Shown piece after piece: positions 1 through 19,968 of a stretch of DNA of 64,000 bases. The notes under the pieces are model-generated. The model was not told where the DNA came from and searched no databases. It saw only the letters and a list, made by a program, of their open reading frames with translations. The position numbers and the translations under genes are program-made. The stretch is from an uncultured Chthonomonadaceae bacterium (GTDB taxonomy: Bacteria > Armatimonadota > Chthonomonadetes > Chthonomonadales > Chthonomonadaceae): NCBI GenBank assembly GCA_963835065.1, contig CAWIEK010000009.1, forward strand, positions 32,001 to 96,000, written 5' to 3'. How positions within the stretch are numbered: position 1 is the first letter of the stretch; each line of letters opens with the position of its first letter.

Positions 1-9
1 CTTTCTGCT

Positions 10-1482
10 TTGTGCGCAGTCTCGGTTCCTGCGCCGCGCAAAGGGACTGTGACGGCGCGGCTTGCGCCTGCCGCGCCCCGTATACCGGGGCAAACCTCGC
101 GCCGAAACCGGACGCGCTCAACTCCGCCCCCGCCTGCCGACGGCTGCGCCAATCAGCAGTCGCCTCTCGTGCGCGTGTGCTTGCTGCGCTATGCGGGCGC
201 GTCACAGATCGTTGTGGAAGCGCTTGCCGGAGCAAAATTGCTGGACGAAATGGGCAAAGAGCGGGCGGCGGGTATCGGCCCGTGGACGTTTACGTCAGAG
301 GGTGGCGGCATACAGGCGCGGGATGCGCGGGGTAAAAAGTTAGGCGCGATTGTGGAAGGACAGCCCTGGCGGGTGCAGACGGAGGACGGCGACGCGCAAA
401 TCGGCCTGCGCGGTTCAGGAAGCGCTATACGCCACTATCACGGCAGCATGGAAATCCGCAATGCGGGCGGGCAAATTCGCGTCATCAACGAAGTGGATAT
501 AGAATCGTATCTGTGCGGCGTGGTTATCAGCGAGATCGGCGACGGGCCACTTGAAGCCATCAAAGCGCAGGCCATTGCCGCCCGCACCTACGCCATCAGC
601 AGCCGGGGCCGCTGGAAAACCGACGGCTATGACCTGCGCGATACGGTTGACTCGCAGGCGTACAACGGCATTGAAGCGGAAACGAGCGACGGCAACCGCG
701 CTGTGCGCGAAACAGCCGGCTGGATACTGACACTAAACGGGCAGGCCATTGACGCGGATTTTTGCGACGATTGCGGCGGCGTCACGGCTCCGGGTGACGA
801 TCCCAACATCCTGCCGCGCTCCGTTTCCGATGCGGAAGCGCACCGCAACATCCGCCGTTCGCCGCATGGAACGTGGACGCTGAACCTGACGGCGGATAAA
901 TTGGGCGCGATAGCAGGCCGAAACAGCAAGGCGCGAGGAACCGGAACCCTGCTCGGCGTGGAAATCAGCGCGCGGGATGTGTCCGGGCGGGCGCAGCGCG
1001 TCCGCCTCGGATGGGGGCCAAAGACCCTATCCGGTTCCTCCCTCCCAACTACTTCCGCCAATTCCGCCGCGAGTTCCTCTACGAACGCAATGCCGCCTGA
1101 CCCCTCTGAGGGCAGCCGAACCTCCACTTCCCCGCTTGTACCGCCTTCGGCTCCCGCGCTGCCCACCGCTACGATGTTCACGGAAATCAGCGGCGACACT
1201 TTGCGCGGACTGATTGGCTACAACGTTTTGCGCAGCACCCTGTTTACGGTTCGGCGGATGCCCAACGGAGATTTTCAGTTCGACGGCAAGGGATGGGGGC
1301 ATGGGCATGGCCTGTGCCAGCAGGGCGCTCTCGCCCTCGCCGCTCCCCCGCTCAACCGCGCCGCCGCCGCCATCGTCCAGCATTACTATCCCGGCGCGCA
1401 GCTTACGCGCATGACGCAGGCGGCGGAGGAAGGGGCAGAAGAGGGAAGAGGGAAAAGGGAAAAGAAAAAAGAAAAAATATAG
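10..1482 (+). CDS. SpoIID/LytB domain protein (true start probably upstream of the window)
   Basis: Motifs INEVDIESYLCGVVISEI, EAIKAQAIAARTYA, DTVDSQAYNG, LRSTLF and GWGHGHGLCQQGA are typical of SpoIID/LytB. Confidence 0.9.
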   Translation: MCAVSVPAPRKGTVTARLAPAAPRIPGQTSRRNRTRSTPPPPADGCANQQSPLVRVCLLRYAGASQIVVEALAGAKLLDEMGKERAAGIGPWTFTSEGGGIQARDARGKKLGAIVEGQPWRVQTEDGDAQIGLRGSGSAIRHYHGSMEIRNAGGQIRVINEVDIESYLCGVVISEIGDGPLEAIKAQAIAARTYAISSRGRWKTDGYDLRDTVDSQAYNGIEAETSDGNRAVRETAGWILTLNGQAIDADFCDDCGGVTAPGDDPNILPRSVSDAEAHRNIRRSPHGTWTLNLTADKLGAIAGRNSKARGTGTLLGVEISARDVSGRAQRVRLGWGPKTLSGSSLPTTSANSAASSSTNAMPPDPSEGSRTSTSPLVPPSAPALPTATMFTEISGDTLRGLIGYNVLRSTLFTVRRMPNGDFQFDGKGWGHGHGLCQQGALALAAPPLNRAAAAIVQHYYPGAQLTRMTQAAEEGAEEGRGKREKKKEKI

Positions 1483-1525
1483 GAGGCGATATAAAGGAAC
1501 ACGAATAGAGCAAATTACCGGAAAT

Positions 1526-1568
1526 AACAACGCGCCCTGCTTTTTCTTGAAAAGCAGGGCGCGTTGTA
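1526..1568. terminator. Intrinsic terminator-like hairpin
   Basis: acaacgcgccctgctttt / aaaagcagggcgcgttgt perfect inverted repeat downstream of the SpoIID gene. Confidence 0.7.
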
Positions 1569-1810
1569 TAACACACCGGTACACTGCGGCATAGATTCGC
1601 CAGAAGTTCTTTCGTCCGCAGGACGATTGACCGAAGGCCTAATAACCGCCAACGAGATTTAGATGGTATATACCGGTTCCTACCAGCATATTTACACCAT
1701 GGCGTACCAGACGCGGCGCGATACAGGAAGCCACAACAAAGTTAGGCCAGGATAATGTAAGGTGTGCCTGGCATCTTGATATACACAAACAAAAATGGCA
1801 CACGGCGCGT

Positions 1811-2119
1811 TTACTGGTGACGATGCGGCACAAGCGCGCATTGCCGCCACATAGCCCGCCACTCCAGAAGCGTTGCTTCCAGCGCTTGTTCCGGCGACTC
1901 GCCAATGGAACGTCGCTTGTGATACTCCTCAAACGCAAGCGCGTAGCCGGGCAGCAACATTTCCGCATCTTCATCGGTGATGGTGAAGCCGGACGCATCG
2001 CAACAGACAGCTGGCGCGCAGGCAGTTTTGTTATGTTCGCTGTCAATGATTGAAGCGACGACAGGACGAACCGCAGTTTTGTATATCTCATTCATCATGG
2101 TTTGATACTTGCTTTCCAC
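1811..2119 (-). CDS. Hypothetical protein (~100 aa)
   Basis: Protein-like composition; sits between two terminators; no family recognised. Confidence 0.5.
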   Translation of the reverse strand: MESKYQTMMNEIYKTAVRPVVASIIDSEHNKTACAPAVCCDASGFTITDEDAEMLLPGYALAFEEYHKRRSIGESPEQALEATLLEWRAMWRQCALVPHRHQ

Positions 2120-2326
2120 TCATCCCAGAGTGAACGACATCAAGGTCATTGGAGGCAAGCGGGAACCAACGCGCTTGTGGCGCGTTGTTATAAGCAGACG
2201 ATAGACACTGGCGAATGTTCCCGGAATAGAATTAGGAAGAGGCAACCCCCGCAAGTTCACTGGAAGAGCGGAGTTTTCGATGCAACTGATGTTAGTATAG
2301 CCACTTTTTCAATGAAAAACAAGGCT

Positions 2327-2369
2327 AAAAAGTGGCAATTTCCTGAAAACTCAGGAAATTGCCACTTTC
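2327..2369. terminator. Bidirectional intrinsic terminator
   Basis: aaaagtggcaatttcctga / tcaggaaattgccactttt perfect stem downstream of the S53 gene. Confidence 0.8.
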
Positions 2370-2415
2370 TGCCATAAATAGGGGCGCGGAACGACTGCCG
2401 CTCCTTCGCCAGGGG

Positions 2416-4788
2416 CTACTGCGCGTTCAGCGCGAAGTCATCCACCAGGAATGAGGTTGCGAGGGAACTATCTTCCACACCCACCAGATAGACCTGCACC
2501 GTTTGCCCCTTGTAAGCCGACAAGTCAAACGTTTTTTGGGTGTACGCGCTGCCTTTGTTCAGGTTGGAGTAGGTTGCGAGGGTGGTTAAAACCGCGCCGC
2601 TGCTGTTACGCACCTGCACTTTGAGCGTGTCGTAGGCCGATGTAGTTGTAGTTTCCTTGGTGGTGACGAGCAGCCAGAAGGTCAGTGTCGCGCTCGTAAC
2701 GGTGGAAGGAATAGTTACCGTCTGGTACACCGTATCGGTGTGCGCCGAGCCATAACCATCCATCCAGGCTTTCCAACTGCCGCTGTGGGCGGGAGCGCCG
2801 GTGGAACTGTCAATCACGCCCGAAGTCGTCGTCCACGAACCGTCGGCTCCACTTTCAAAGCCGGGATTTTTCAGCAGTTGCGTGGGGGTTCCGCCGCCGC
2901 CGCCACCGCCACCGCTTACCGTGCCACCGGCAAGGTCGGTCAGCAGGTTCGCGCCGTTGTTGATGGTTCCCAGCCCGGTTGCCGCGTCGTAGCCGGAAAC
3001 TGCCGGGTAGTACAGGTTGGTGCTGCCGTCGGCGATGTCATGGAACTCTGTGGTGTAGTTGCTGCCTTTGCCAATGGTGTATAAAGGCGGGTTGGCGAAA
3101 CCTAACACGCCTTTGCCGGCGCTGACGCGCTGCTGATTGACCAGCGCGATAAACGCCGACCAGAGCGGAGCGGCGCAGCTTGTGCCGCCATAAATGTTCC
3201 ATTTGCCGCCAACGTAAATGGCATAGCCGCTGTTCGGGTCGGCGTCGAGAGAAACGTCGGGCACGTTGCGGTACGTGGTGGAGGTTTTCGCGGCGGTAGA
3301 GCCGAAGCCGACTTGATACGATGGAATAGTCCAGACCGTGCTGATGCCGCCACCCCCACCGCCATTGGCAATGCTGCCGCCGTTCCAGGTGGTTTCCGAA
3401 CTCCATGCGCCGCCTGCGCCACTGGTGGTCAGTTTGGTTCCGCCAACGCCCGTCATGTAGGGCTGCGAAGCCGGGTCGTCCACACTCAGCGAGGAGCCGT
3501 TGTCATACGCGCCGCTGTCGCCCGCGGCGGCAAAGATGCTCTGCCCCTGCGCGGCCATCTGCTGAAAAGCGTTGTTTTCGCTGGTGCGCGCGCTGGAACT
3601 GTTGCCGCTTTCGTACAATCCCCAACTGGTGCTGACGCTTTTGGCAAGGTTGTCCGTAGCGATGCGGTTGTACGTATCCACGACGCCCGCATTAGAATTC
3701 GGTCCCTCGTACACGTAAATCTTGGACGCGCCCGGGGCAAGGGCGATTTGCAGTTCGATGTCGAGCGTCACTTCGCCCGCGCCGCTGCCCGCCGCGCCCG
3801 TAGCGCTATCTACCAGCACATTTTGCAGGGACACGCTGGGCAGGCCGAAGTTGCCTTCGTAGGCCGTAATATCGCTGGCCTTGTAGCCGTCGAGTTCAAA
3901 CAAGCCCAGGGTTTGCCCCGTGCCGGTTTGCGTCACGCCGCTCAGTCCGTAGGCTTTCTTGATGTCATTCGGCGCTAATCCCCCGCCTGGCCCGGAACCT
4001 GTTAGGCGAGGGTCTGCTCCCCCGCCCGTACCCGGACTATCGCCTAGCGGAACCAGCGGATTGGCGGGTGGATTAAGAAAAGCAAGCGGGTCCATCGGCT
4101 TCAAGCGGTTGTGCGGCTGCCAGACGGCGGCGGTATCCAATCCGACGACGCTTTGCAACTTGCCGGCAAGACCGGCGGGAATCACAGGGTCGGCGTCCGG
4201 CGCGCGGAACACGCGCCCGGTGGGTAACCGGTACTGCTTCAAGCGCAGGCCGAAGGCGGCTTCCACGTTTTGCGCCGGGGCAGCCACATCCAGGATCAGG
4301 CGGTTGGGATGGGTCGCCGTTACGGTCAGGCCCTGCGCCTGCGCGAAGGCGGCAACCGCGTTGTAATCGGCCTGCGTGGGCGCGAACTGCGCGTTGAATT
4401 GTTCGGGCGTCAGATATTTGCCGTACAGGGGATCGTTGGGATCGTACAGGCGCGTCAGCAGATCGGTGAGCGCGGCTTGATTGCGCAGGGGCAGGGCGAG
4501 GGCGAGATTGACGGTTTCCGCAGGCTGGACGCGGCCAATCAAATTGGCGCTTTGCACCACGTCGGGAATATGGCCGCGCAGGTGTACCGCGCCGGTTTGC
4601 GCGCCGGCGGACAGAGAAAGTGTGGCAAGGCCACAAAAAGCGGATAGGGAAGCTAGAACACGCGAAGCCGAAACCAACCGCGAACCGGCGCGGCGAAAAA
4701 AGCGACCAGAGCAGCGTTGTTTCAAATCCAAACTCCTATGGCCGGACCTTGCCCGGCGGGGGTCACGCGAAGAAGGCTTGGGATGCAT
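2416..4788 (-). CDS. S53 family (sedolisin/kumamolisin-like) serine peptidase with prodomain and C-terminal beta-sandwich domain
   Basis: Prodomain (YGKYLTPEQFNAQFAP), catalytic EVTLDIE, AAAGDSG, RNVPDVS, GGTSCAAP, GYDAATGLGT; signal-like segment; start uncertain. Confidence 0.92.
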   Translation of the reverse strand: MHPKPSSRDPRRARSGHRSLDLKQRCSGRFFRRAGSRLVSASRVLASLSAFCGLATLSLSAGAQTGAVHLRGHIPDVVQSANLIGRVQPAETVNLALALPLRNQAALTDLLTRLYDPNDPLYGKYLTPEQFNAQFAPTQADYNAVAAFAQAQGLTVTATHPNRLILDVAAPAQNVEAAFGLRLKQYRLPTGRVFRAPDADPVIPAGLAGKLQSVVGLDTAAVWQPHNRLKPMDPLAFLNPPANPLVPLGDSPGTGGGADPRLTGSGPGGGLAPNDIKKAYGLSGVTQTGTGQTLGLFELDGYKASDITAYEGNFGLPSVSLQNVLVDSATGAAGSGAGEVTLDIELQIALAPGASKIYVYEGPNSNAGVVDTYNRIATDNLAKSVSTSWGLYESGNSSSARTSENNAFQQMAAQGQSIFAAAGDSGAYDNGSSLSVDDPASQPYMTGVGGTKLTTSGAGGAWSSETTWNGGSIANGGGGGGISTVWTIPSYQVGFGSTAAKTSTTYRNVPDVSLDADPNSGYAIYVGGKWNIYGGTSCAAPLWSAFIALVNQQRVSAGKGVLGFANPPLYTIGKGSNYTTEFHDIADGSTNLYYPAVSGYDAATGLGTINNGANLLTDLAGGTVSGGGGGGGGTPTQLLKNPGFESGADGSWTTTSGVIDSSTGAPAHSGSWKAWMDGYGSAHTDTVYQTVTIPSTVTSATLTFWLLVTTKETTTTSAYDTLKVQVRNSSGAVLTTLATYSNLNKGSAYTQKTFDLSAYKGQTVQVYLVGVEDSSLATSFLVDDFALNAQ

Positions 4789-4993
4789 CGTTGCGGAAGA
4801 AACTCTTGCGCGCGAATGTCGGTCAGAAAAGTACAGGGGTATTGTACAGGGTACTTATGAGAATAGCCAGTATATTTACCAAAAATACAGGTGTAAACTG
4901 CTATTTTTTACAATTTTACGGATACGCAGACGCAGGTAGCTTGAAGACGGCAAGCCAATGCAAGTTCGTTGGGAATTTACATCGGCGGCGGTA

Positions 4994-5022
4994 TTGACAA
5001 TTTCGGCAACAAGGCTTATAAT
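4994..5022 (+). promoter_or_regulatory. Consensus sigma70 promoter (putative antitoxin/antisense RNA promoter)
   Basis: TTGACA 4994-4999, 17-nt spacer, TATAAT 5017-5022; no credible + strand CDS follows. Confidence 0.85.
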
Positions 5023-5074
5023 AGAAACATCCCTGCCGAGGATGTGAAGTCCCCGACAGGAAACAGCCTAAGCT

Positions 5075-5206
5075 CTAAAGCAGATTAGAGCATCGGCGCT
5101 GGCGTTTTCGCCGTTGTCGCTTTATCCAGCGGCACAGCAAGACAATTGCCGTGCTGAGGGTGACGACGTTGGCGGCTACAGCCAGCCAGAACAGGAAGCT
5201 TGTCAT
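5075..5206 (-). CDS. Small membrane peptide, putative type I toxin: MTSFLFWLAVAANVVTLSTAIVLLCRWIKRQRRKRQRRCSNLL
   Basis: Hand-translated 43-aa ORF; SD GAAAGGAG 6 nt before the ATG; ~21-aa hydrophobic helix followed by an Arg/Lys-rich tail; TACAAT -10 box at 5302-5307 on -. Confidence 0.75.
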   Translation of the reverse strand: MTSFLFWLAVAANVVTLSTAIVLLCRWIKRQRRKRQRRCSNLL

Positions 5207-5317
5207 CAGCTTCTCCTTTCTGCGAGAAAATTAGCGTTGGCGCGCTGATTCCTCGAGTTTGTTTTGGGAGTGTGGCGCGCTAACGCTGCACTCCCGCACT
5301 CATTGTACCCACACAAG

Positions 5318-5366
5318 CAAAGCGTTCCGCCTCCCCATGAAGGAGAAGCGGAACGCTTTGTTGTTT
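5318..5366. terminator. Bidirectional terminator hairpin
   Basis: caaagcgttccgc / gcggaacgctttg stem just after the CrtP-like stop. Confidence 0.75.
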
Positions 5367-5392
5367 ATACTCTACGCAAATGATAGCAAACT

Positions 5393-6943
5393 TTATCCGC
5401 GCGCTGTTCCCGCCAGTTCCGGGCGGCTGACGGGCGCTTTGTCGTCGCGCCCATAATCTTCCAGAACGCAGTTGGCAGCGATTTGCCCGGACATCAAGAC
5501 CATCGGGACGCCGGGGCCGGGATTGACGCTGCCGCCCGCCCAATACAAGCCTTTGATGAGGTCGCTGCGGTTGGACATTTTGAAGGCGGAATTCAGGCCG
5601 CGCTGCGTGACCACGCCGTAAATCGCGCCCCGGTTCACCCAGTACATCTTCTCCAAATCGCGCGGCGTAACCGTCCGCGACACCTGAATACTGTCGCGCA
5701 GGCCGGTCAGACCGCTCCGCTCCAGCTTGCTGATAATCACCTCCCGATAGCGAACGGCTTCTTTGTCCCAATCGAAAGCGTCCGTCAGATAGGGGCAATG
5801 CACCAGAACATACAGGGCAGTGCAGCCGGGCGGAGCCATCTGCGGGTCGGTGAGGGATGGCACGGCGAGATAGCAGGTCGGGTCTTCGTGCGGAATCTTG
5901 CGTTCGTACAGGTCGCGGAACTCCTCGTCGCTGTCGGCGGAAAAATAAAAGTCGTGGTGCTTCAATTGCGGCCAGGTTTTGTTGCAGCCCAGGTAAAGCA
6001 CGATGCCGGAACACGCCGGTTCCAGTTGCTTTTCGTGCTTTTGCGCATACGCTTTCGTATCTACGCCGGTAAGCATTTGTTCCAGTGTGCGTACAATATC
6101 GGAATTGGCGACCACCACATCAAACGTTTCCAGGTCGCCGTTTTCCGGCACAATGCCCCGGACGCTTCCGCCTGCGGTTTCGATACGCGCAATCGGTGTA
6201 TTCAGGCGTACATCCACGCCCAACTCGTCGCATAAGCGAGTCAGGGCGCGGGCGATTTCTCCTGTGCCACCCATAGGATACCAGCAGCCGAGCGCAAGCT
6301 GCACCCAAGCGATCAGGCACAAAATGGCAGGCGCGACAAACGGCGACGAGCCGACGTATTGCACGAAATGCTCGAACAATTGCGCCAGGCGCGGGTCTTT
6401 GAAATGCTTGCGCACGGCCTGGTGCATCGTGGAAAGCGGGTCCATATTCATAGCGATCCCTAATGATTGAATGTTCATCGGGTTCGCTCGCGCCATTTCC
6501 ATGATGCTGCCATACGGTTTCCAGTAAAACCAGCGATCCGACACGTCGTTCATTTTCTGGCTGTACGCGAGAAATTGAAGGTAATTGGAAATCTCGGCTG
6601 GCGCAAACCGCTGAAGTTCGGCGATCATATCCTGCAATGACGTGTACAAATCAAAGCGGCTGCCATCCGCGAAAAACGCGCGCCACTGTGGATCAAGCGA
6701 CACCAAATCCAGATAATCCTCGCGCCTGCGCCCCACATCGGAAAACAAGCGATCCAGAACGTCGGGTTTGGTGATGATGGTCGGCCCCATATCGAAATAG
6801 TAGCCGCCTTCTTCCCAAACGTTCATTTTGCCGCCCAAATGCGCGTTCTTTTCAAACAGCGTGACGGCATGGCCCGCGTGTGCCAGCCGAACCGCTGCCG
6901 CGCACCCTGCCAATCCCCCGCCTACTACGGCTATCTTTGCCAT
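5393..6943 (-). CDS. Phytoene desaturase family oxidoreductase, CrtP/CrtNb-like (diapolycopene oxygenase)
   Basis: GGGLAG FAD motif, FDMGPT, EPACSGIVLYLG..PQLKHHDF, NRGAIYGVV, GGSVNPGPGVPMVLMSG. Confidence 0.85.
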   Translation of the reverse strand: MAKIAVVGGGLAGCAAAVRLAHAGHAVTLFEKNAHLGGKMNVWEEGGYYFDMGPTIITKPDVLDRLFSDVGRRREDYLDLVSLDPQWRAFFADGSRFDLYTSLQDMIAELQRFAPAEISNYLQFLAYSQKMNDVSDRWFYWKPYGSIMEMARANPMNIQSLGIAMNMDPLSTMHQAVRKHFKDPRLAQLFEHFVQYVGSSPFVAPAILCLIAWVQLALGCWYPMGGTGEIARALTRLCDELGVDVRLNTPIARIETAGGSVRGIVPENGDLETFDVVVANSDIVRTLEQMLTGVDTKAYAQKHEKQLEPACSGIVLYLGCNKTWPQLKHHDFYFSADSDEEFRDLYERKIPHEDPTCYLAVPSLTDPQMAPPGCTALYVLVHCPYLTDAFDWDKEAVRYREVIISKLERSGLTGLRDSIQVSRTVTPRDLEKMYWVNRGAIYGVVTQRGLNSAFKMSNRSDLIKGLYWAGGSVNPGPGVPMVLMSGQIAANCVLEDYGRDDKAPVSRPELAGTARG

Positions 6944-7048
6944 GATAATTCTGCTTCTCCCCGAAAAACCAACTTACAAAAAGCCAATTTTATGACCTTC
7001 GGCTACTCGTCCTGCGGACGGAATTCTCTGATAATTTTATGCTTGCTG

Positions 7049-7651
7049 TTAAGGCTCAGGATTGAAGTACCAGCCCGAATCGAAAATTCGCGGACCTTCT
7101 TGCTCCAATCGGTCATTGGAAGCCTTGAAAAAGGAAAGAAAACTATCCGCAACGTAGTACATCATGTCCGGGTCGTGCTGATAGACGATGATTTGTCCCG
7201 TTTTGCCCTGTGGTGTCGGGGCAGCATCAACATACAGCGCCGCGTTCCAACCGCCCCACTCCGCAAAGGGAAACCAGTGCCGGTGCGAAAGCAGGCCGGG
7301 CTGGATGCGCGCGTCCCATTCGCCTGCATATTCATCCGGCTCAAGGTCGGGAATGGCATCGGTATCTGCGGAGTAGGGGCCGTGTACGTTGTACAACTCC
7401 TGTGCCTCTTCCACGCTCATTAAGGAGAACGGCGTCTCCTCATCCGTATCTGCAAGAAACCAGAGTTGACCGGGAGAGCCGTTGCAGACCTGCCACAATC
7501 CGCGCAAATCCTCATCCAGTGGGATACCAGTTTGCGCCATCACTCGTTCAAGAACATCGGATGTAACCGGTGGGGCAAGCGTCAAGGGATGCCCGGCTGC
7601 CCGGCTAAACGCGAGCAGTCGGTCAAGTTGCGCCTGTAGTTCTGCTCTCAT
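7049..7651 (-). CDS. SMI1/KNR4 family protein
   Basis: GIPLDEDLRGLWQVCNG, WFPFAEWGG, YVDAAPTPQGKTGQII, VADSFLSFF. Confidence 0.8.
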   Translation of the reverse strand: MRAELQAQLDRLLAFSRAAGHPLTLAPPVTSDVLERVMAQTGIPLDEDLRGLWQVCNGSPGQLWFLADTDEETPFSLMSVEEAQELYNVHGPYSADTDAIPDLEPDEYAGEWDARIQPGLLSHRHWFPFAEWGGWNAALYVDAAPTPQGKTGQIIVYQHDPDMMYYVADSFLSFFKASNDRLEQEGPRIFDSGWYFNPEP

Positions 7652-7665
7652 ACAAACGGCCCCTC

Positions 7666-9228
7666 TTATTTTGCGTGTTTGTTCCAGTGACGAACGGCAT
7701 CGGTCAGTTGGCGAACAGCCTGCATTTTCGCTTTTACGCCTCGCGCCGATTTCAGGGCGAGAAAGCCACGCAAAATGGGCATGGTGGCGTCGTAATAGGG
7801 AAATACATGCCGCTGCGCTCCTGCCTTAGATTGCCAGCAGACGGTTTTCCAGTGTACAAATTCGTCCAGGCCCGCTTCGCCGCGCTGCTGTCCCCAGCCG
7901 CTTGCGCCCGTGCCACCGAAGGGCAAGCCGGGCCGCGTACCCGTCATCAATGTTTCCGAATTGATTGTAACTACGCCTGCCTTCAACCGCGCCGCTATAT
8001 CCCTACCCCGGCTCACATCCCGCGTCCACACGCTTGCGCCCAATCCCATCGGGTTCGCGTTCGCAAGGGCAATTGCTTCGTCAGTATCACGCGCCGAGCG
8101 GACGCACAAAACCGGGCCGAAGAAATCTTCGCGCATAATCGGCATTTCATCGCGGCAATCGGCAAGCAGGGTCGGGGTATAGAAAAAGCCGTTCGCAAAT
8201 TCTTCCCCATCCAAACAATCGCCGCCTGTTACCACTCTTGCCCCACGCTGAACCGCATCCACTGCCAGCCCGTGTGCCCGCTTCCGAAACCCGTCCGTTC
8301 GCACAGGCCCGTAATCCACGCCCGCCCGCAAGCCCTTCAACGCAGCTTCGCAGGCATCGAGAAAAGCCGGGTACGCGGAGGCTTCCACATAAACGCGCTG
8401 CGGCGATACGCAGCTTTGCCCCGCGTTGCAAACGCGCGCCCAAACTGCCGCTTTCGCCGTTGCGTTTAACTCCGCGTCCGCGCAGACAATCAGGGCGTCG
8501 TTGCCACTGAGTTCCATCACGCTCGGAATACCGCGCGGGGCAAGCTGCGCCAGTATCGCTCGCCCGGTGGCAACGCTGCCCGTAAACGCCAGTTTATCAA
8601 TATACGAGCCGGCGTTTTCTTCATCGGAGTTGGCGTCTGCTTGAAGCGGATTGCACAATGCCTGCCCCGTACCGCCATCTCCCGTTACCAACGTAACAGG
8701 CAAACCGGCGCGTTCCAAATGGGCATACAGCGCCACAGCGGAAGCCGTTGCCAGTTCCGAAGGCTTCCACACGACTGCATTTCCGCCCGCAAGCGCCCAG
8801 GCCAGCGTCGCGCCGTCCAGCAGCAGGGGATAATTCCACGTGCCGATGACGCCCACAACGCCAACCGGCATCGGCAGCAATTGCGCCCGCTTTTCCCCCG
8901 CAACCGTTCGCGGCTTCAGCAGACCCGGCAAACGCGCCATCAGCCAATCCAGCCCGCCAATCAACGCCAGCACATCGGCGGCATACGCTTCTTGCAGCGG
9001 CTTGCCAATCTCCTCCGCCACCACCAGCGCCAGCGCGTCCGCATCCCCGGCAATGCTGTCGCGCAGACGCCGCAGCGCCCCTACCCGCTCACCAACCGCC
9101 ATTGCGCCCCACGCGCCTTGCCGCTCCCGCGCCCGTTTCACCGCACAGGCCACCTCTGCCGCCGAGGATATGGGAAAGGTCCCAATCCGCGCGCCGTTTC
9201 TGGGATTGTACGAGCCAAAAGAGGTCAT
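7666..9228 (-). CDS. Aldehyde dehydrogenase (likely carotenoid-aldehyde dehydrogenase, AldH-like)
   Basis: WNYP, KPSE, FTGSVATG, MELSGND, NAGQSC, EDFFGP, PFGG; start moved to ATG 9228 because the upstream extension is repeat DNA. Confidence 0.92.
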   Translation of the reverse strand: MTSFGSYNPRNGARIGTFPISSAAEVACAVKRARERQGAWGAMAVGERVGALRRLRDSIAGDADALALVVAEEIGKPLQEAYAADVLALIGGLDWLMARLPGLLKPRTVAGEKRAQLLPMPVGVVGVIGTWNYPLLLDGATLAWALAGGNAVVWKPSELATASAVALYAHLERAGLPVTLVTGDGGTGQALCNPLQADANSDEENAGSYIDKLAFTGSVATGRAILAQLAPRGIPSVMELSGNDALIVCADAELNATAKAAVWARVCNAGQSCVSPQRVYVEASAYPAFLDACEAALKGLRAGVDYGPVRTDGFRKRAHGLAVDAVQRGARVVTGGDCLDGEEFANGFFYTPTLLADCRDEMPIMREDFFGPVLCVRSARDTDEAIALANANPMGLGASVWTRDVSRGRDIAARLKAGVVTINSETLMTGTRPGLPFGGTGASGWGQQRGEAGLDEFVHWKTVCWQSKAGAQRHVFPYYDATMPILRGFLALKSARGVKAKMQAVRQLTDAVRHWNKHAK

Positions 9229-9240
9229 CAGAAAATTAAC

Positions 9241-9552
9241 CACCCGCCTGCGGCTAGAGACACAGAGGCACAGAGGAAAAACCAATGCGAGAAAAAAGAA
9301 GAGAACCGCGAAACATGCGAACCAAGACGAAAAAAGGAAAATACAAAAGCCCAAACCACGGATGAAACGGATAAAACAGATGGACACGGATAAGAATAGC
9401 AGAGAATTAGTCCTTCTCGTGTGTAATCCTGTCTATTCCCCTTCGTTCTTTTTTCGTTTATTTCGTGGGTTTCGCGGTTTCTATCTCTCTCCTTTTCTTC
9501 TCTTCCTCTGTGTTCCCTCTCTGTGTCTCTGTGCCTCTAGCGCAGCGGGTGG
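9241..9552. repeat. Nested palindromic intergenic repeat cluster (acacagagg 9-mer arms with inner IR pairs)
   Basis: cacccgc..ctagagacacagaggcacagagg versus ctctgtgtctctgtgcctctagcgcagcgggtg; inner aaccgcgaaac / gtttcgcggtt; same family at 55070-55110 and 57811-57978. Confidence 0.8.
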
Positions 9553-9561
9553 TGAATACTC

Positions 9562-11226
9562 CTATCTTCGCGCCGTTGCGGTGATTTCTTCCGCCGCGAG
9601 GCGGCCTGAAGTCAGCACGATGGGAACGCCGCCGCCCGGATGGGTGCTGGCGCCGACGAAGTACAGGCCATTCACGTCTTCGCTGCGGCTGTGCGGGCGG
9701 AAGTAGGCCGACTGCAAGAAACTTGGCGTCAGGCCGCTGTACGCCGCGCCCGCGCAGCAGCCGTAAAGCGACTCGAACTCCGGGGGCGTGAATTCGCGCT
9801 CGAACACGATGTTGTCGCGCAGACCGGGCAGCCCTTCATTTTCCAGTTTCGTCAACACGCGCTCACGCAGCAGGGGCGCTTCGCGTTTCCAATCAATCTT
9901 GGCGTCCGTGTTGGGACAGGGAACCAGAACATACACAACATCGTGGCCGGGAGGAGCCAGCGTCGGGTCGGTACGGGTCGGGATGCAGACGTGCATGGCC
10001 GGGTCACGGGGCAGGATGTGGTGAACGCAAATGTCGTCTATGATCTGCCGGTAGTTGTCACTCAGCACGATCATGTTATGTCCCCACTCGCTCGGTATTT
10101 GCTTCACGCCAAGATACAGCAGATACCCGGAACAGCCGAAGTCATGTTTATCTATTCGCGCATCCGTGTGCTTGCGCCGGACTTCGGGCGGCAGCAGCGT
10201 TTTATACGCCATTGGCACATCTAAATTACACACTACCACGTCGGCCTGCCAATTGCGCCCGTCACAGGTACGAACGCCCGTCGCCTGCTTGCCTTCCATT
10301 GTAATGCGCTCGACGGGCTGATTGAAGTGCAGATTACCGCCCAATTCGCGCAGCAGGGTTTCCAGCGCGTCAGCAAGGGCAATCGTGCCGCCTTTCGGGA
10401 ACCACACGCCGAATTCCATTTCAATGTAGGGCAGCAGGGCGTAAATGGAAGGACAGGCGTAGGGACTCATGCCTAAATACAGGGTTTGAAACGTGAGCGC
10501 CTGCCGGAGTTTTTCGTTCGTGATGTTTTTGCTGACGAACTTGTACACGCTTTCAAGGGGTAAGGCTTTCACCAGCCCGCGCAGGGTTTGCGGGTGCGTG
10601 AGGTCGCGCAGGCTGTTGAACGAGCGTTCGATAAAGTTGTAGCGGGCGTTGTCGTACTTGCCCTTCATTTTGCCGATAAACGGGCGGATGCGGTCTTTAT
10701 CTTCGGGCGCGAACTCCTGCATGTGCGCGATCATCTCGTCAATGGAGCCGCCCATGTTCAATTGGCTGCCGTCCGGCCAGACGATGGTATACGCGGGAGT
10801 GAGTCGCGTCCAACTTAAATAATCTTTGATGTCGCGCCCGCAGGCGCGGAAGATATTTTCAACGACTTCGGGCATCATCAGCATGGTCGGCCCCATGTCA
10901 ATGGTAAACCCCTGCTCCCGAATCACGTTCATGCGCCCGCCACTGCGCGCGTTGCGCTCGATCACATCCACCTGCCAGCCCTGCCGCGCCAGATGAATGG
11001 CGGCGGAAAGCCCGCCCAAGCCCGCCCCAATCACAACCGCGCGGGGACTATCAGCGACATTTCGCGTCTCATTCTGCGCGTTGCGGCGGTCTGAGCGGCG
11101 GTGTTCATCGCCGAAATCAGCATTGTCCTGCTGGCGCGCTCTGGCAGGCGCGGCAACGGAAGGGGACATGGCGGCAGACGGAAGGGGAGCAAACTCGGCT
11201 CCATCGGATACATTCATCGAAGACAA
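9562..11226 (-). CDS. Phytoene desaturase family protein, CrtN/CrtI-like
   Basis: GAGLGG, DMGPTMLMMP, FQTLYLGMSP, GVWFPKGG, QSAYFRPH, VGASTHPGGGVPIV. Confidence 0.9.
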   Translation of the reverse strand: MSSMNVSDGAEFAPLPSAAMSPSVAAPARARQQDNADFGDEHRRSDRRNAQNETRNVADSPRAVVIGAGLGGLSAAIHLARQGWQVDVIERNARSGGRMNVIREQGFTIDMGPTMLMMPEVVENIFRACGRDIKDYLSWTRLTPAYTIVWPDGSQLNMGGSIDEMIAHMQEFAPEDKDRIRPFIGKMKGKYDNARYNFIERSFNSLRDLTHPQTLRGLVKALPLESVYKFVSKNITNEKLRQALTFQTLYLGMSPYACPSIYALLPYIEMEFGVWFPKGGTIALADALETLLRELGGNLHFNQPVERITMEGKQATGVRTCDGRNWQADVVVCNLDVPMAYKTLLPPEVRRKHTDARIDKHDFGCSGYLLYLGVKQIPSEWGHNMIVLSDNYRQIIDDICVHHILPRDPAMHVCIPTRTDPTLAPPGHDVVYVLVPCPNTDAKIDWKREAPLLRERVLTKLENEGLPGLRDNIVFEREFTPPEFESLYGCCAGAAYSGLTPSFLQSAYFRPHSRSEDVNGLYFVGASTHPGGGVPIVLTSGRLAAEEITATARR

Positions 11227-11305
11227 CGCGCCTCCTCACGGGCATGGTCACGCACGGACGTACAACCTTTGTACGCGCTGAACCGTTGATTTACTTCACA
11301 ATGTC

Positions 11306-11419
11306 GGTGTTCAGGTGTTCGGGTATTCAGGTGTTCGTTATGATTGCTTTCTGCGCTAAAGCAAACGTTGGTGCTTTTGTATCTCCTGAACACCCGAACA
11401 CCTGAATACCTGAACACCC
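11306..11419. repeat. ggtgttca/tgaacacc octamer tandem repeats in inverted arrangement
   Basis: Same family at 23396-23428, 47022-47127 and 61750-61856. Confidence 0.85.
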
Positions 11420-11421
11420 AC

Positions 11422-11901
11422 CTAATCCTGCAAGGTTTCCAGAACGCGCAATAACTCCTGTGGCGCGGGATTGCCGCGCTGCGCGAACGCGATTTTGCCC
11501 TGCCGGTCTATCAGGTACACGGTTCGGCGGATAAGGCCGAACAACATGCGGCAGCCATACGCGGCGGCGATTTCATTTTTCGCGTCCACCAGCAGGGGAA
11601 ACGGAAACTGATGGCGGGCGACAAAACCGGCGTGTTTCTCCTGGTTGGCGGGGTTGACGCCGTAAACGCGCGTGTCCTGCGCCTGAAAGCGGCTCCAATC
11701 ATCGCGGAACGCGCACAATTGCGCGGTGCAAACGGGCGTATTATCTCCCGGATAAAACACCAGCACGACCCGCTCCTTGCCGCGCAGGGCTGACAGGGAC
11801 AGCGTACTGCCGTCGCTGCATAGACAGGTGAAGTCAGGCGCAGGCTGTCCTACGGAGATAAGGTTCGATTGCGCAGCCACGTTTGTTTCGCTTTCCCTCA
11901 A
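11422..11901 (-). CDS. Peroxiredoxin (BCP/AhpC-TSA family)
   Basis: APDFT, FYPGDNTPVCTAQLC, FPFPLLVD, RTVYLID. Confidence 0.92.
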   Translation of the reverse strand: MRESETNVAAQSNLISVGQPAPDFTCLCSDGSTLSLSALRGKERVVLVFYPGDNTPVCTAQLCAFRDDWSRFQAQDTRVYGVNPANQEKHAGFVARHQFPFPLLVDAKNEIAAAYGCRMLFGLIRRTVYLIDRQGKIAFAQRGNPAPQELLRVLETLQD

Positions 11902-12153
11902 AGTTTTGCCCTGTCGCGGCGGGCGTATTGCACAGGACGCGCGTTCCGCTGCGAACGGAAAACAGTCGCTTGTGTCAGGCGGTAGAGGCTCCGGGCTGTT
12001 CTTATATTACTGTTCACTAATGTAACTGGTTCCACGTTCCGGCTTTTTCGTGTCTTTTTGCCGTATTCTTTCGGGCTTAATCGCCCGGCCCTCAACCCCT
12101 GACCCCTTCTCCCAAAGTTGGGAGAAGGGGAATCAATCAGGACAGGCTCTTGC

Positions 12154-13758
12154 TTACTCTTCTTTGCCGCCTGCGTGCTGAAGCAGAACGACAAGGGTTG
12201 CATCCTTGTGCTTGCGCGCGTAATACAAGGGCGTGTGTACGGACGACGTGTGCGCGTTCACATCTGCGCCATGCTGGAGCAGCAGGCGCGTACAGGGGAT
12301 GTTGGACGCCAGAACTGCGAGGCACAGCGGTGTTCGCGTGGATTGGGAACGTCCTGTTTGGTTGGGATTTGCGCCATGTTCCAGCAGAAACGCTACACCG
12401 GAAGGGGCATGGAGAACAGCCTGGCACAGCGCCGTTTCGCCCGCCTTATTTGTCCCGTTGACATTGGCTCCCAACGCAAGCAGGCGCGGGAACAAATCGG
12501 CGTGCCCAGCCTGTGCCGCCCACGCCAGAATGCCTTGTTTGTCCGAGCCGATCTTCGCGCCCGCTTGCTGCAGCAGGGTCACACATTCGGGAGCAAAGCA
12601 AGCCGCGTTCATCAGGAGGGATGCAGGCATCAAGCCTTTGTTTCCATACAATTTTGACATACCCATACTTCCGTCACTTAACGGTTGATTTACGTCGGCT
12701 CCATGTTGAAGCAGTACCCGAAGCTGCGCCCTGTCCCGCCGCAAAATGGCGGCTTTCAGCGCGGCTGCATTGTATCCGTTGACATTCGCGCCCTTTCGGA
12801 GCAGTTCCGGCACAAGCGCAGGCAGATTGACAACGGCGGAAGCGAGGGCGGGAAGGTCCCAGGCACTGCTTGCGGGCGCTGCGTTGGGATCGGCTCCATG
12901 CGCGAGCAGCAGGCGAGCAAGAACGGCGTCTTTGTGGGTGATTGCCTGTAACAGTGGCGGCGAAAGCAGGGTGCTGCCGGCATTGACATTCGCGCCGTGT
13001 TCCAGCAGCAGGCGAACCGCGCCCATGCTGCGCCGGTCAACAGCGACTTGCAAGGGGGTCGGCTGCTCGATTGGAGGAACAACGCTAACAGCCGGTTCGC
13101 GGGCATCCACGGCAGCGCCCGCTTCCAAAGCCGCGCGCAATCCGGCAAGGTCATCCAGCCGTATCCATTGGTGGAGCGTTACGCGCGCGCCATGCGCCTG
13201 CAGCAGGCGCGCGAGTTCCCGCGTAACTCGACAATACTGTTCGGCTTCGGCGGCTGCCTTCTGCGGATCATGGGGATAAACGGCACGAGAACTGCGCGCA
13301 ATGGCGCAATCCATTGGCAACCCGGAATTGGGCTGAAGGGCGTTTGCATCCGCCCCATGTTCCAGCAGAGCGCGCGTCAGTTTGACGTTGCCATCGTTGC
13401 AGGCGATATTAAGCAAACCTGCATCCCACTTTTCACGCACATTCGCGCCATGTTCGACCAACAGGCAGGCGATCTCTGTTTGTTTTTCTTTGGCGGCTGA
13501 ATTGGCGGCGCTCCCCGTAATTCCACACGCCACATACAGCAGGGGAATATCCTCGCCTAATTCGGTTTCATGTGGTTTCCTCGTGTTGGGATTTGCGCCT
13601 TTGGCAAGCAGGGCGCGAACGGCGGGCACATTTTTGGTTTCAACGGCGGTGAGAAGCGCGGCATCGAGATAGCGCCGGTACACGTTCCGTCCGATGATAG
13701 CAAGCGCGCAAACAACAACGAGCGGGAACAGCAAACGCGGCAAACGGCCTTTTGACAT
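12154..13758 (-). CDS. Ankyrin repeat protein with N-terminal TM anchor
   Basis: Many LLxHGA(D/N)VN and TPL ankyrin motifs; GAGGA RBS before ATG 13758. Confidence 0.9.
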   Translation of the reverse strand: MSKGRLPRLLFPLVVVCALAIIGRNVYRRYLDAALLTAVETKNVPAVRALLAKGANPNTRKPHETELGEDIPLLYVACGITGSAANSAAKEKQTEIACLLVEHGANVREKWDAGLLNIACNDGNVKLTRALLEHGADANALQPNSGLPMDCAIARSSRAVYPHDPQKAAAEAEQYCRVTRELARLLQAHGARVTLHQWIRLDDLAGLRAALEAGAAVDAREPAVSVVPPIEQPTPLQVAVDRRSMGAVRLLLEHGANVNAGSTLLSPPLLQAITHKDAVLARLLLAHGADPNAAPASSAWDLPALASAVVNLPALVPELLRKGANVNGYNAAALKAAILRRDRAQLRVLLQHGADVNQPLSDGSMGMSKLYGNKGLMPASLLMNAACFAPECVTLLQQAGAKIGSDKQGILAWAAQAGHADLFPRLLALGANVNGTNKAGETALCQAVLHAPSGVAFLLEHGANPNQTGRSQSTRTPLCLAVLASNIPCTRLLLQHGADVNAHTSSVHTPLYYARKHKDATLVVLLQHAGGKEE

Positions 13759-13889
13759 AGCGGTGTCCTCGTGGGGGGAGGAAGATGGGCGCAAGGATAG
13801 CCCGAACGCCGGGGCAGCGTTGGAGCAGGGACGGCATTGTTTTGAGCGGTGATGATGTGTCCCCAATGCGGGCATATAAATGGAGCGGG

Positions 13890-14480
13890 CGCGGCTGTTT
13901 GCGAACGCGCGCCAGTAGCTTCTTTTGCTCCTCTGCGCCGCTACCGCCTTCGTGGGGCAACAGCGTCCAGAGGAGGGGAATAGCCCGCTTGCGAGAGGCT
14001 AAGGCGACAAACAACAGGTGAAAGCGGTCGTCAAGATCGGTCTGATCCCTAATCAACTCGCTCTCGCGGTTCTTCCAGCAGGCCAGCCCTGCCCGTGCCA
14101 TGCCTTTGTACCAGAGCGTAGGCGCACTCGCCTTGTTCTTGAGAAAGCGTTCCAGGCGCTGCAAGGCGTTGCGCGCGTTACCGGGAATAGGAAGGCGTTG
14201 GGCGCGTTACCGGCAATAGGCAAGAACAACGCGATTTTGGGCAAATGGACATGGCCGGCAAGCACCAAGCCAGAGATGAACAGCGCCAGATTGTGGAGTT
14301 GGGGCACACTGGCGTCAGGCACACGTAGACGCAAACGCGCTGACAGGGTATCATAATTCGTACAAGACCGCTTCATGGTTGACCTCGGTGAGCATGTGGG
14401 TTGGCGCTTACATTCTACCAACTTTGTCACCGAAACGGTCTTGTTCTCATTATCACTTTTTCTGAAGGTTCGTCAGGGCT
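13890..14480 (-). pseudogene. Truncated, frameshifted IS4-like DDE transposase remnant
   Basis: Fragments in two frames (LALFISGLVLAGHVHLPKIA; QRLERFLKN; DQTDL..LFVALASRKRAIPLLW); an internal duplication breaks the frame; C-terminal half absent. Confidence 0.7.
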
Positions 14481-14582
14481 GTGTACTAAATTAGGATATA
14501 TTTCTACTCTCATTGGCTCAGACAGCACCCTGAATTGCAACTACTATCGGTTCACAGGAGCCAAAACACTGGCTTTTTTTGA

Positions 14583-14831
14583 ATGAGCAGCAACACGATG
14601 CAATCCAAAAACAATGTAATCCGCCCGTCCGTGAGTGATGTTTTAGATCAGGCATGGCTCGATGCAGGAATGTCGCTACAAGAGTTGGAAACAAATAAGC
14701 GTCTGGCAGACATTTTCGATCAATTGCTGGCTTCGGGACGAACGCCGGAAGACATCAATGCGGAGTGGGAAATGAAAACGCCACAGGAAATTATATGCAA
14801 TCATGCGCCTCCATTACGGACACAGAACTGA
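14583..14831 (+). CDS. Hypothetical protein (82 aa)
   Basis: Protein-like ORF followed by a terminator hairpin. Confidence 0.45.
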   Translation: MSSNTMQSKNNVIRPSVSDVLDQAWLDAGMSLQELETNKRLADIFDQLLASGRTPEDINAEWEMKTPQEIICNHAPPLRTQN

Positions 14832-14852
14832 TAACGCAGAACTGTTCAGGAA

Positions 14853-14890
14853 TTCAGCCCTGCGCGAGTATGGTCGCGCAGGGCTGAAAA
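14853..14890. terminator. Terminator hairpin between convergent genes
   Basis: ttcagccctgcgcga / tcgcgcagggctgaa. Confidence 0.75.
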
Positions 14891-14894
14891 TATG

Positions 14895-17800
14895 TTACCG
14901 TTGGGTGGTTTCGCGGCGGATGGCGCGTCCGGGGCGGTAGGCTTTGTCCGGGAACGCGGGCGGGTTGGGACGCGGAACCGGGTGTTTGGCGATGTCGGCT
15001 TTTAGCGCGGCAATCGCCCGATCCAATTGCGGGTCGCGCCCGGCCATCAGGCTTGCCGGATCGTTGGCAACGGTAATGTCGGGCTGCGCCCCGGTTCCCT
15101 CGATGAGCCACGTTCCCTTGCCGTCCGGCGCCCATTCGCCGTAATTGGGAATGGATAGCCTGCCGCCGTCTATCAGCGGATAGCCACCGCCGGAGCCGAC
15201 CTCCCCGCCCCATGTCCGAACGCCAACAACCGGGCCGAGTTTGAGCCGCTGAAAAGCGTCGCAGAATTCTTCCGCATTGGAACCGCTGTTTTCATTACAC
15301 AGGGCCACGCTGTAGCCGGAAAACCCCCAACTCTGCCGCGTCCATGACGCCCCGTAGCGCGGCTTGAAATAGGTCATGGGCTTGGACGCCATTTGCAGCA
15401 GCAGCATCGCCGAAATGTTGCCGCCGCCATTGTTGCGAACGTCGTAGATCATGCCGTCTTTGGGCAGATTGGCGTAATAGTGCTTGGTGAACTCGGTCAG
15501 GCCGCCCTGCGTCATGTCGGGAATATGGACGTAGCCCAGGTTTTCGCCGCCATGCGTTCGGACGTACTCGCGGCGGCTGTCCACCCAATCGTAGTACCGC
15601 GCTTTTGCCTCCGTTGCCATCGGTTTTACGCGAATCTCCCGCGCTCCCTCCAGAGTCGGCTTGCTGTTGACCGTAAGCGTCAGCATTTGCCCCGGCGTTC
15701 CGATCAGCAGCGCTTGAAGGTCCTGATCGGCGCGAACCGGCTGTCCTGCGACGGCAAGAACGTAATCGCCGACTTTGACGTTTACGCCCGGAGTCAGCAG
15801 GGGTGAGCGCGATTCAAGATCGAACTCGTCGCCTGGATACAGTTTTGTGATGCGGAAAGCGTCTACGCCTCCGACGACGCCATTCCCCGCGCCGCCCACA
15901 TTCCCTGCCCCGTTTGCGCCTCCATTCGCGTTTGCGCCCGCGTTGGGATTTGCATTGGCATTTGCATTGGCATTTGCGCCGTTCGCTTTGACCGGCTCGA
16001 AATCCGCGCCCAGATAGCCCATCGGAGCCGGACGCGCTGTTACCTCGCCCGTATCCCCGCCGCCCACATACGCATGGCCTGTATTCAGTTCGGCAATCAT
16101 ATCGCCCAAAATGCCGTTGAGGTCGCTGCGGTCAGCGACGGCGGGAAGCTGCGCCGCGTACTTGGCTTTCACGGCCTGCCAATTGACGCCGTGCATGTTC
16201 GGATCGTAGAAAAAGTCGCGGGCAATACGCCACGATTCGGCGAAAATCTGCTTCCACTCCTGCGCGGGATCAACCGTCAGGGTCACGCCCGCCATGTCCA
16301 CATTGCCGGTTCCGGGCGCGACAGGACCGGTTGAACTGTCCACAACAGCAAGCGCCTTGCCCGTCTGCAGCAGCAGTTTTTTGCGATCCGCCGATACCTG
16401 AAAGTCCGACAGGCGCGGAACCAGCGTCGCGCTTTGCTTCTTTTTGAGGTCGAAAGCAATCAATGAGTTGGGAACCGGGCCAGCCTGCCCTTCCGGGTCG
16501 GCGTTGACGAGCAGGAGCAGCCGTCCGTCCAGCGCCGCCACTTTGCCATAACGGTCGGCAGGCAGGGGAATGTCTACAAGCCGCGTGGCGATGCCGTTCA
16601 CATCCACTTTCACGGTCGGCAAACTTCCTGATGCCGGGGCCGCGTTGCCTGCCGCGCCGGGTACGCTTGTTGCCGCGCCGGTCACTGCGCCAGTCGGGGA
16701 TGCGGGCGTGGCAGGGGTTGAAGCCGGGGAAGCGGGACGGGAAGCCGCTGCGGTATCGGGCGTACCCTCCTCGTCGTTGTTGAGCAGGAACGGCGAGGGC
16801 GTGTCGGCGGCAAGGGGAACCAGCGTTACTTTTGTTGTTTTGCTGTACGCGAAGAAATGGCTTGCGCCGGCGTCTACAGGGTCGAATTGCCGGTCCGAGA
16901 GGAACACAAGATACTTGCCGGAGGAGTCGAACGTTGGCCCGTAACTGTTCATTTCAGATGTGGTAATCGCGGTTTTCTTGCGGGTGGCGATGTCGTACAG
17001 GTAAACGGCGCTGTTCCAGTTCGGCTCATTTTTGTCGTAAGCCAGCCATTTGCCGTCCGGGCTGAAGGCAACCGGGTCTACCATATTGTCGTAAGAGCCA
17101 CCCCGGTCAGCCTGATCTACGGTTGTCATTTCGCCTGTTGTCGTATCGGCAAGCAGAATCCGCATTTCCCGGTCACTGGTGGCAATGGTTTTGCCGTCCG
17201 GCGACCAGAGGAGGGGGCCGAGCGGCCCCTGATGGGCGCGGGTCAGTTGCCGCGCCGGCCCGGTTCCGGTTGTGGGCGCAATCCAGATTTGCTCTTCGCC
17301 GGAGCGATCCGACACAAACGCCATTTGCCTGCCGTCGCGCGACCACGAGGGATACTGCGAGCGGCTTCCCGGCAGAAGCGCAGCCGGGCGGGCATCGCCG
17401 TTTTCTACGGGAACGCTCCACACCTGCCCCCGCGCTTCCACAAGAACGCGCTTGCCTGTCGGCCCAATCGCGGCATAGTTGATCGCGGGCTGAAGCGGGA
17501 CGCGGCGCGAACGGGCATGGATGCGGTCGGAATTGAGCGCGAAGCGCAGTTCCGTTGTTTTGCTTGTGGCCGGGTCGAACAGAGCGAGTCCATGCCCGTG
17601 CTGAAACACAATGCGCCCGCCATCCGAAGCGGGATACGCGATGCCGTAATCCGTGTAATGGGTGACTTCGGCTGTTTTGCTTGTTTTCGGGTCGAGCCGG
17701 TACAGGTTGGCAATGCCGTCGCGCTCCGACACGAAATAGATTGCGTCTCCAACCCATACGGGTGTGGTATCAATGCCCGGATCATTGGTCAGTTTTTTGA

Positions 17801-18458: not shown

Positions 18459-18475
18459 TATACTCCCCTTTTGTG

Positions 18476-19963: not shown

Positions 19964-19968
19964 ACTTT

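Follow-up and report, generated by a model that had tools for sequence, protein, structure and literature searches.

The window, by which we mean the whole stretch of 64,000 nucleotides from an uncultured Chthonomonadaceae bacterium, carries a cassette of ~300 bp in the intergenic gap between a peptidase ORF (2416-4788) and a flavin-oxidoreductase gene (5393-6943), both on the minus strand. Within this gap, at 5206-5075 on the minus strand, an ORF encodes a 43-aa peptide; read directly from the sequence, its position and product are exactly those claimed by an initial annotation of this DNA, and so is the Shine-Dalgarno (SD) sequence upstream of it, AGAAAGGAG at 5221-5213 (minus). The peptide combines a hydrophobic segment, residues 6-24, with a Kyte-Doolittle 19-mer mean of 2.1 and a net charge of +9. 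Upstream of the ORF lies the TACAAT box described earlier, at 5307-5302 (minus), a predicted weak promoter with a start near 5295 and with no recognisable -35 box before it. Facing the gene from beyond its stop codon, at 4994-5022 on the plus strand, is TTGACA-17-TATAAT, which matches the consensus at 12 of 12 positions and predicts a start near 5029. The peptidase is of the pro-kumamolisin type, and the window copy is not placed in a cas operon with a guide. A promoter-like site, TTTACA-17-TATACT at 4869-4897 (minus), stands back to back with the antisense promoter and probably serves the peptidase gene. On the other side, 5393-11226 (minus) comprises two flavin-oxidoreductase genes and one aldehyde-dehydrogenase-like gene, a series broken by a SMI1/KNR4 (SUKH-1) gene at 7049-7651. 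These flavin-oxidoreductase genes resemble carotenoid desaturases, the one at 5393-6943 presumably being phytoene desaturase-like.

ORF 5206-5075 is a gene under purifying selection. In 13 intact copies, pN/pS across codons 2-29 comes to 0.33-0.39, a value to be read with the choice of intact copies by peptide similarity in mind, as this choice favours a low pN/pS. The peptide frame is free of stops through its first 35 codons in 12/12 intact copies long enough to test, and each of the other five frames has stops in 5 to 12 of these 12 copies over the same stretch; because the copies are related, such counts are not independent. The family motif is MxSFxFWL. The hydrophobic 19-mer is kept in 13 copies (means 1.56-2.1 by hydropathy calculation), and the basic tail gives full-length copies a net charge of +6 to +10. 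One copy, G002_C3, reads through the stop, and the adjoining gene is also fragmented in that assembly. That the peptide matches no recognised family holds up, given that 14 members have no significant match in Pfam, NCBIfam or PHROG; among the matches of these members at E values up to 1 there is no named type I toxin family, be it Hok, Ldr/Fst, Ibs, TisB, TxpA, BsrG, AapA, SprG or holin-like toxin. Likewise, no PDB chain matches the peptide, and an ESM Atlas search gave scores no higher than 0.80. A collection sequence considered as a family member, P0015, was rejected as a repeat artefact.

DNA and protein searches for relatives recovered the whole ~300-bp cassette elsewhere: two other genomes of its genus have it, as do two further genera of Chthonomonadaceae. 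A profile of 24 sequences finds it in 5/68 genomes of the class, all of them Chthonomonadaceae, at 1 to 9 copies each (G000, the source genome, 2; G001, 1; G002, 2; G023, 1; G031, 9), so that 37/42 genomes of the family are without it. In a phylum-wide sample of 401 Armatimonadota genomes strong matches are confined to the same genomes; 18 further genomes give weak partial matches only (E 2e-4 to 1e-2), of which the one inspected, L063, was rejected. An SD-plus-start DNA pattern returned 15 loci, with four outside Chthonomonadaceae, none of them a cassette. Three antisense-frame matches, presumably PilT-like, were rejected as relatives. No relative was found in the viral contigs, phage records or plasmid records searched; protein collections yielded 17 sequences including the query and metagenomes two loci. 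Seventeen DNA copies were compared, those of the five genomes together with the two metagenomic ones, and 15 of them have an assessable 3' side, two G031 copies being cut by contig ends.

Four of the 15 assessable copies are broken, by one in-frame stop, two frameshifts and, in one case, reduction to a 5'-half relic. The relic lies in the source genome itself (L078:1389-1560, G000:C63:121457), and the view that the window copy is the only one in G000 was given up when the profile found it. It retains the -10 box, the 5' hairpin, the SD lock and 18 codons, and is without the basic tail, the 3' hairpin and the opposing promoter. In the broken-frame G031 copies L045, L049:9957-10318 and L052 (C111, C533b, C152) the -10 boxes of the peptide gene are non-consensus, as they also are in some intact copies. 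In a tree of 14 copies the G031 and metagenomic copies form one group and the G023 copy is sister to the genus clade (98/98). Three of the genus copies lie downstream of the same flavin-oxidoreductase gene, with a different gene on their other side, and the G031 copies adjoin groEL, tyrS, tpiA, queC, lepA, ftsA and others, as identified with Pfam. This clustering apart from the genus, next to unrelated neighbours, is reminiscent of type I loci, for which lineage-specific duplication has been described (PMC2887945). One metagenomic copy has a DDE transposase gene immediately beyond it (L086:445-1734).

The shared position in the genus bears on a reading of the cassette as the last gene or a 3' regulator of the upstream flavin-oxidoreductase operon, which would agree with its same strand and same place in three genomes. 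We give this reading hardly any credence, as a long hairpin at 5313-5364 (-39.0 kcal/mol on the minus strand) separates the flavin-oxidoreductase gene from the cassette, and the other 14 copies are not seen beside that gene, though several of them are near contig ends. With U-rich tails in both directions, this hairpin is the predicted terminator of the flavin-oxidoreductase gene and likely also the end of the window copy's antisense RNA; on the plus strand its energy is -30.1 kcal/mol, and a terminator-like site at 5345-5359 lies within it.

The predicted mRNA, 5296-5022, is more stable than expected (z = -7.4, with 0/200 shuffles equally stable) and would fold into local hairpins in series, with H1 at the 5' end (5266-5295), H2 in the leader (5223-5255), the SD stem, the ORF, H3 around the stop codon (5072-5091) and H4 at the 3' end (5032-5060), all on the minus strand. 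A hexamer related to TACAAT occupies the same position in most copies and is degraded in several G031 copies. By eye, a hairpin of different sequence takes the place of H2 in most copies, being absent from L085, and H3-like inverted repeats are seen at the stop of most copies. H1 and H4 are the stems that covary most strongly, more so than the SD stem. In H1, 89% of 136 cells are paired and 6/8 pairs show changes on both sides; in H4, listed as terminator-like and the predicted terminator of the peptide mRNA, 100% of 154 cells are paired, 6/11 pairs show changes on both sides, and on each of the five covariation measures 0/500 shuffles match it. A comparison by eye of the H1 loops of the window copy and of copy G002_C10 suggests that a local inversion made a direct repeat inverted.

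The pairing of the SD with early codons, leaving the AUG in the loop, is predicted in 17/17 copies and involves codons 3-7. In the window copy the lock spans 5188-5221 (minus), with the SD at 5221-5213 facing 5200-5188, at -15.0 kcal/mol; across the 17 copies it ranges from -11.1 to -18.5 kcal/mol. By comparison, SD stems of 441 control genes of the source genome average -6.7, and 9.3% of them reach -11 and 1.1% reach -15. Set against synonymous recoding the window copy is not exceptional, with 11.8% of 500 recodings as stable, and the lock falls within the best 5% of recodings in 7/17 copies. Lock stability comes largely from the choice of Ser-Phe-x-Phe-Trp, and what constrains the conserved N-terminal motif may thus be the RNA no less than the protein. 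In the alignment 95.5% of SD-stem cells are paired and 8 cells are changed on both sides, a number reached in 0/500 shuffles; two pairs covary, and two of the five covariation measures are not above shuffles (262 and 500 of 500). A compensatory change in the lock falls at a synonymous Ser position. When 109 hydrophobic short SD-led ORFs of the source genome were scanned, 3 combined such a lock with an opposing promoter, by criteria that were chosen after the locus had been seen.

The initial annotation had further proposed two mutually exclusive stems in the leader. Both sets of arms exist, the hairpin at 5266-5295 and the alternative pairing 5233-5245/5275-5287, and the switch in the mRNA does not, as the alternative stem has a probability of 0.006 in the mRNA ensemble. 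On the antisense strand of the window copy its probability is 0.97, and none of the 16 other copies exceeds 0.11 on either strand. A conserved leader switch was thus rejected, the alternative stem being confined to the window copy and to its antisense strand. Nor did we find a processing step or a switch for releasing the mRNA lock.

On the opposite strand the evidence starts from the promoter. The source genome has 46 perfect TTGACA-17-TATAAT sites, where simple arithmetic from its 57% G+C gives ~0.3, and the organism therefore uses this consensus. An opposing promoter is present in 13/15 assessable copies, in 11/11 with an intact peptide and in 2/4 with a broken one, a suggestive association with peptide integrity in which the difference is not significant. 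In the genus, 4/4 full copies have it in perfect form around a diverging spacer; 6/7 G031 copies and L086 have an extended -10 form, L085 has TTGACA-16-TAATAT, and the G023 copy has a perfect promoter that lies farther out. As had been claimed, the antisense strand is without a coding sequence of its own, and no plus-strand reading frame is conserved across copies. Its predicted RNA (5029-5366, from the promoter and the polarity of the U tracts) folds with z = -6.4.

Where would the two transcripts end? On the mRNA strand the 12 nt after H4 contain 5 or more U in 11/14 copies, against 1/14 on the opposite strand. For H1, read on the plus strand as the predicted antisense terminator, the following 12 nt of the antisense strand contain 6 or more U in 14/17 copies, a count into which the -10 box partly enters; of 63 perfect promoters, used as a partial control, 3% have 4 or more A in the 6 nt past the -10. 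This polarity after H4 and H1 points to a mirror layout, with an antisense RNA that probably extends over the full length of the mRNA. For the antisense RNA, the likely end in most copies is the hairpin at 5266-5295 (~270 nt). For the window copy, continuation to the hairpin at 5313-5364 (~335 nt) is more likely, because it has the weakest tail (4 U) and a competing stem.

Given that the plus-strand promoter is much the stronger, the plus-strand RNA could be a small RNA in its own right or a small repeat element, with the minus-strand ORF incidental to it. The mirror antisense frame has a similar pN/pS (0.33-0.44), which is what one would expect of it, and the RNA contigs described below carry no strand. 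Yet this frame has stops in 7/12 copies and no start, whereas SD, ATG, hydrophobicity and charge are all kept on the minus strand. The G-U pairs of the SD stem and of H4 can pair on the minus strand only, so both stems are assigned to that strand. Rfam gave no match near the cut-off in the window or in 9 related loci, and no shared terminal repeats were seen by eye in ten cassette flanks. Loss of the ORF with retention of the plus-strand RNA, the pattern expected of a stand-alone RNA, is not what the relatives display; peptide, SD lock, hairpins and promoter are conserved together. We therefore regard this explanation as very improbable.

In an RNA library from biocrust, X1, a single study, seven contigs fall on 5040-5277; they carry neither strand nor level and differ in sequence at 2 to 16 positions. 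Over 1-20000 of the window X1 provides 9 contigs, of which 7 fall on the cassette and the remaining 2, short and partial, fall elsewhere; as the run was found by using the cassette stretch, the empty flanks are not counted as evidence. A second run, X2, provides short pieces only. At 5227 and 5268 the loose ends of X1 contigs run into self-complementary leader variants unlike the window, pointing to further unsampled copies of the cassette.

We favour the reading of the cassette as a toxin-antitoxin system of type I, belonging to a new family, with an antisense RNA that probably covers the entire mRNA, and hold it to be probable. The initial annotation had proposed a type I module, a proposal that now draws support from joint conservation, decayed copies and a patchy multicopy spread; its leader switch has fallen away. 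Occurrence in 5/68 genomes at 1-9 copies, next to unrelated neighbours, is counted in favour of this reading. In the mechanism that we envisage, the predicted weak minus-strand promoter would produce an mRNA of ~270 nt whose SD would be paired with its own codons 3-7. The 43-residue peptide, hydrophobic and basic-tailed, would insert in the membrane with the tail inside and, if over-made, would likely arrest growth. The perfect plus-strand promoter would supply an excess of antisense RNA that likely covers the whole mRNA and blocks translation, and the duplex of the two would be destroyed by RNase III. The two terminal hairpins would act as mirror images, each ending one transcript beside the start of the other. 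Once plus-strand transcription stops, leftover mRNA could leak peptide through a breathing SD stem.

The main rival to the type I reading, which we consider unlikely, is that of a non-toxic small membrane protein under antisense control that tunes a membrane partner or a stress response. The evidence at hand concerns regulation and selection, and a precedent exists in YhzE-2 of Bacillus subtilis, which is likewise multicopy, with a hydrophobic peptide and an antisense RNA, and is yet not toxic (PMC2887945). The three genus copies that stay downstream of the same flavin-oxidoreductase gene would suit such a tuning role. A role of this kind fits less well with the absence of the cassette from most of the family, including G013, which is 99% complete, belongs to the genus of G031 and has no profile match; the flanking genes are rearranged in G013, and a comparison with an empty site there is uninformative. 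It also fits less well with the share of broken copies and with the presence of the opposing promoter in every intact one. The placement of one copy in a cas operon with a matching guide argues against it as well, as this is the setting described for toxins and immune genes (PMC10120712; 10.1101/2024.12.27.630466).

That copy, in G023 (L044:2738-3471, G023:C4), lies between the Cas3 gene and the Cas5d/Csd1 genes of a type I-C operon, with a 14-repeat array downstream. A solitary repeat before cas5 is identical to the array repeat at 34/37 nt, and its spacer matches at 15/17 nt, with mismatches at positions 2 and 6, a target that adjoins a TTC PAM ~40 bp upstream of the predicted peptide start. 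The match covers 14/15 scored positions, where the best of 2000 shuffled spacers reaches 11 and the best other site in 6.1 kb reaches 10. Between the antisense promoter and the peptide gene there are three further repeats, all degenerate, for whose spacers the 6.1 kb examined contains no clear target. The guide is to be read with a seed mismatch at position 2, with its occurrence in one genome, and with a target that is also within its own predicted leader, so that it may instead tune cas expression. With CreTA, CrePA and CRISIS, systems of Cascade-repressed cargo, G023 shares a cargo between cas3 and cas5c, a solitary repeat before cas5c and a partially matching spacer, with a mismatch at position 6, whose target beside a TTC PAM is ~40 bp from the predicted start, near the cargo promoter. 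What sets it apart from them is a cargo that encodes a type I-like membrane peptide, runs on the other strand from the cas genes and keeps its antisense promoter, whose transcript first crosses the three degenerate repeats. Beside the window copy, in contrast to all these, there are no cas genes or repeats.

The G023 layout fits both the rule for type I-C CRISPR-supervised immune genes (10.1101/2024.12.27.630466) and the logic of CreTA, in which a toxic cargo is repressed by Cascade (PMC10120712). We propose, tentatively and with more doubt than confidence, that a mirror-layout type I family was captured here by a type I-C operon, such that a Cascade guide represses the toxin promoter and Cas5 cuts the antitoxin RNA out of a degenerate mini-array transcript. 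If this is true, the route from an antisense toxin-antitoxin to a CRISPR-repressed toxin is caught in the act, with the window copy as the free-standing form. The G023 copy offers a natural comparison of antisense-only with antisense-plus-Cascade control in one peptide family. The same layout, by following the rule for supervised immune genes, lends some weight to a peptide for abortive infection, toxic only when an infection stops host transcription or Cascade and selected for defence instead of self-maintenance, a reading that differs from the type I explanation in purpose more than in mechanism. Weak, non-significant holin matches in 4/14 members (best E 0.007) point the same way. Most copies, however, adjoin housekeeping rather than defence genes and the cas-linked case is the only one, and we rate a selected role in defence as quite improbable.

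A scan of the source genome for the same architecture found two further groups of peptides. One, of 36 aa (L115:1900-2007, minus strand, and L116; G000:C3:120206, C37:44094 and 47237), has three copies, a stop hairpin, a 3' hairpin and an opposing TATAAT, occurs in 5/42 genomes of the family, matches nothing in Pfam and is likely another type I family. The other, of 32 aa (L117:2013-2108, plus strand, and L118; G000:C16:3912 and 45589), has two copies and an extended -10 opposing promoter, occurs in 4/42 family genomes and resembles the 36-aa group by eye. A profile comparison of the 43-aa family with the 36-aa group was negative (probability 4.6%). A 2025 account limits the type I systems found so far to Proteobacteria, Firmicutes and Tenericutes and suspects a search bias (PMC12390103); the same question is raised in PMC5367252. 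Our literature search, mostly without subscription journals, found no type I system in Armatimonadota, and such loci could be listed in T1TAdb, TADB or the supplements of papers. A conserved, expanding family in this phylum, together with the look-alike 36-aa group, would bear on the question of search bias. The cassette is easy to test in a laboratory strain, as it is ~300 bp long and both promoters are of the sigma-70 consensus.

How does the cassette compare with known type I systems? Its general dimensions fit the class, as an mRNA of ~270 nt, taken from predicted ends, and a product of 43 aa lie within the 150-400 nt and 20-60 aa of its members. A hydrophobic segment with a charged C-terminus, present by hydropathy and charge in 13 copies, is a feature of the class and is the shape of its membrane-acting toxins (PMC8309996); sequestration of the SD, another such feature, is predicted in every copy, with moderate covariation. 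In T1TAdb the anti-SD elements described either precede the SD or sit at the 3' end, and one within the ORF, as here, is less usual, though involvement of the ORF is reported for AapA3 (PMC8167048). The predicted antisense RNA, at 270-335 nt, is longer than the 60-200 nt given by T1TAdb.

By sequence the cassette fails the tests for every named type I family, as judged by searches of Pfam, NCBIfam, PHROG, PDB and Rfam. Like the AapA toxins of the Helicobacter AapA/IsoA systems, the peptide has basic C-terminal residues, and in both the ORF can take part in SD occlusion; AapA mRNAs are described as having a long-distance 5'-3' fold and 3' processing (PMC8167048), whereas the cassette ends in local covarying hairpins and gives no match. 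Fst, Ldr and SprA1 share with it a short single-helix peptide with a charged tail and a translation initiation region held in a stem, yet the PxxxG(C) motif of Fst/Ldr is absent from the 24 aligned peptides and there is no profile match. TxpA/RatA, BsrG/SR4 and SprG/SprF, convergent systems of Gram-positive bacteria, likewise have an antisense promoter that faces the toxin gene from downstream of its stop codon, and a peptide with one hydrophobic segment and a cationic C-terminus; TxpA is not toxic in E. coli (PMC2887945). Their two RNAs overlap only at the 3' ends (~75-120 nt), whereas in the cassette no conserved U-tailed hairpin stops the antisense RNA before the 5' hairpin, and again no profile matches. 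Ibs/Sib, from enterobacteria, is a multicopy repeat like the cassette, and its antisense RNA covers the whole ORF and the ribosome-binding site (PMC4147584, PMC8594479), which for the cassette is a prediction; it differs in that IbsC, as described, is without a basic C-terminus where the peptide here carries +9 (PMC8309996), and neither Pfam nor Rfam links the two. On this comparison of predicted architectures, the layout is closest to Ibs/Sib and the peptide is closest to the basic-tailed toxins.
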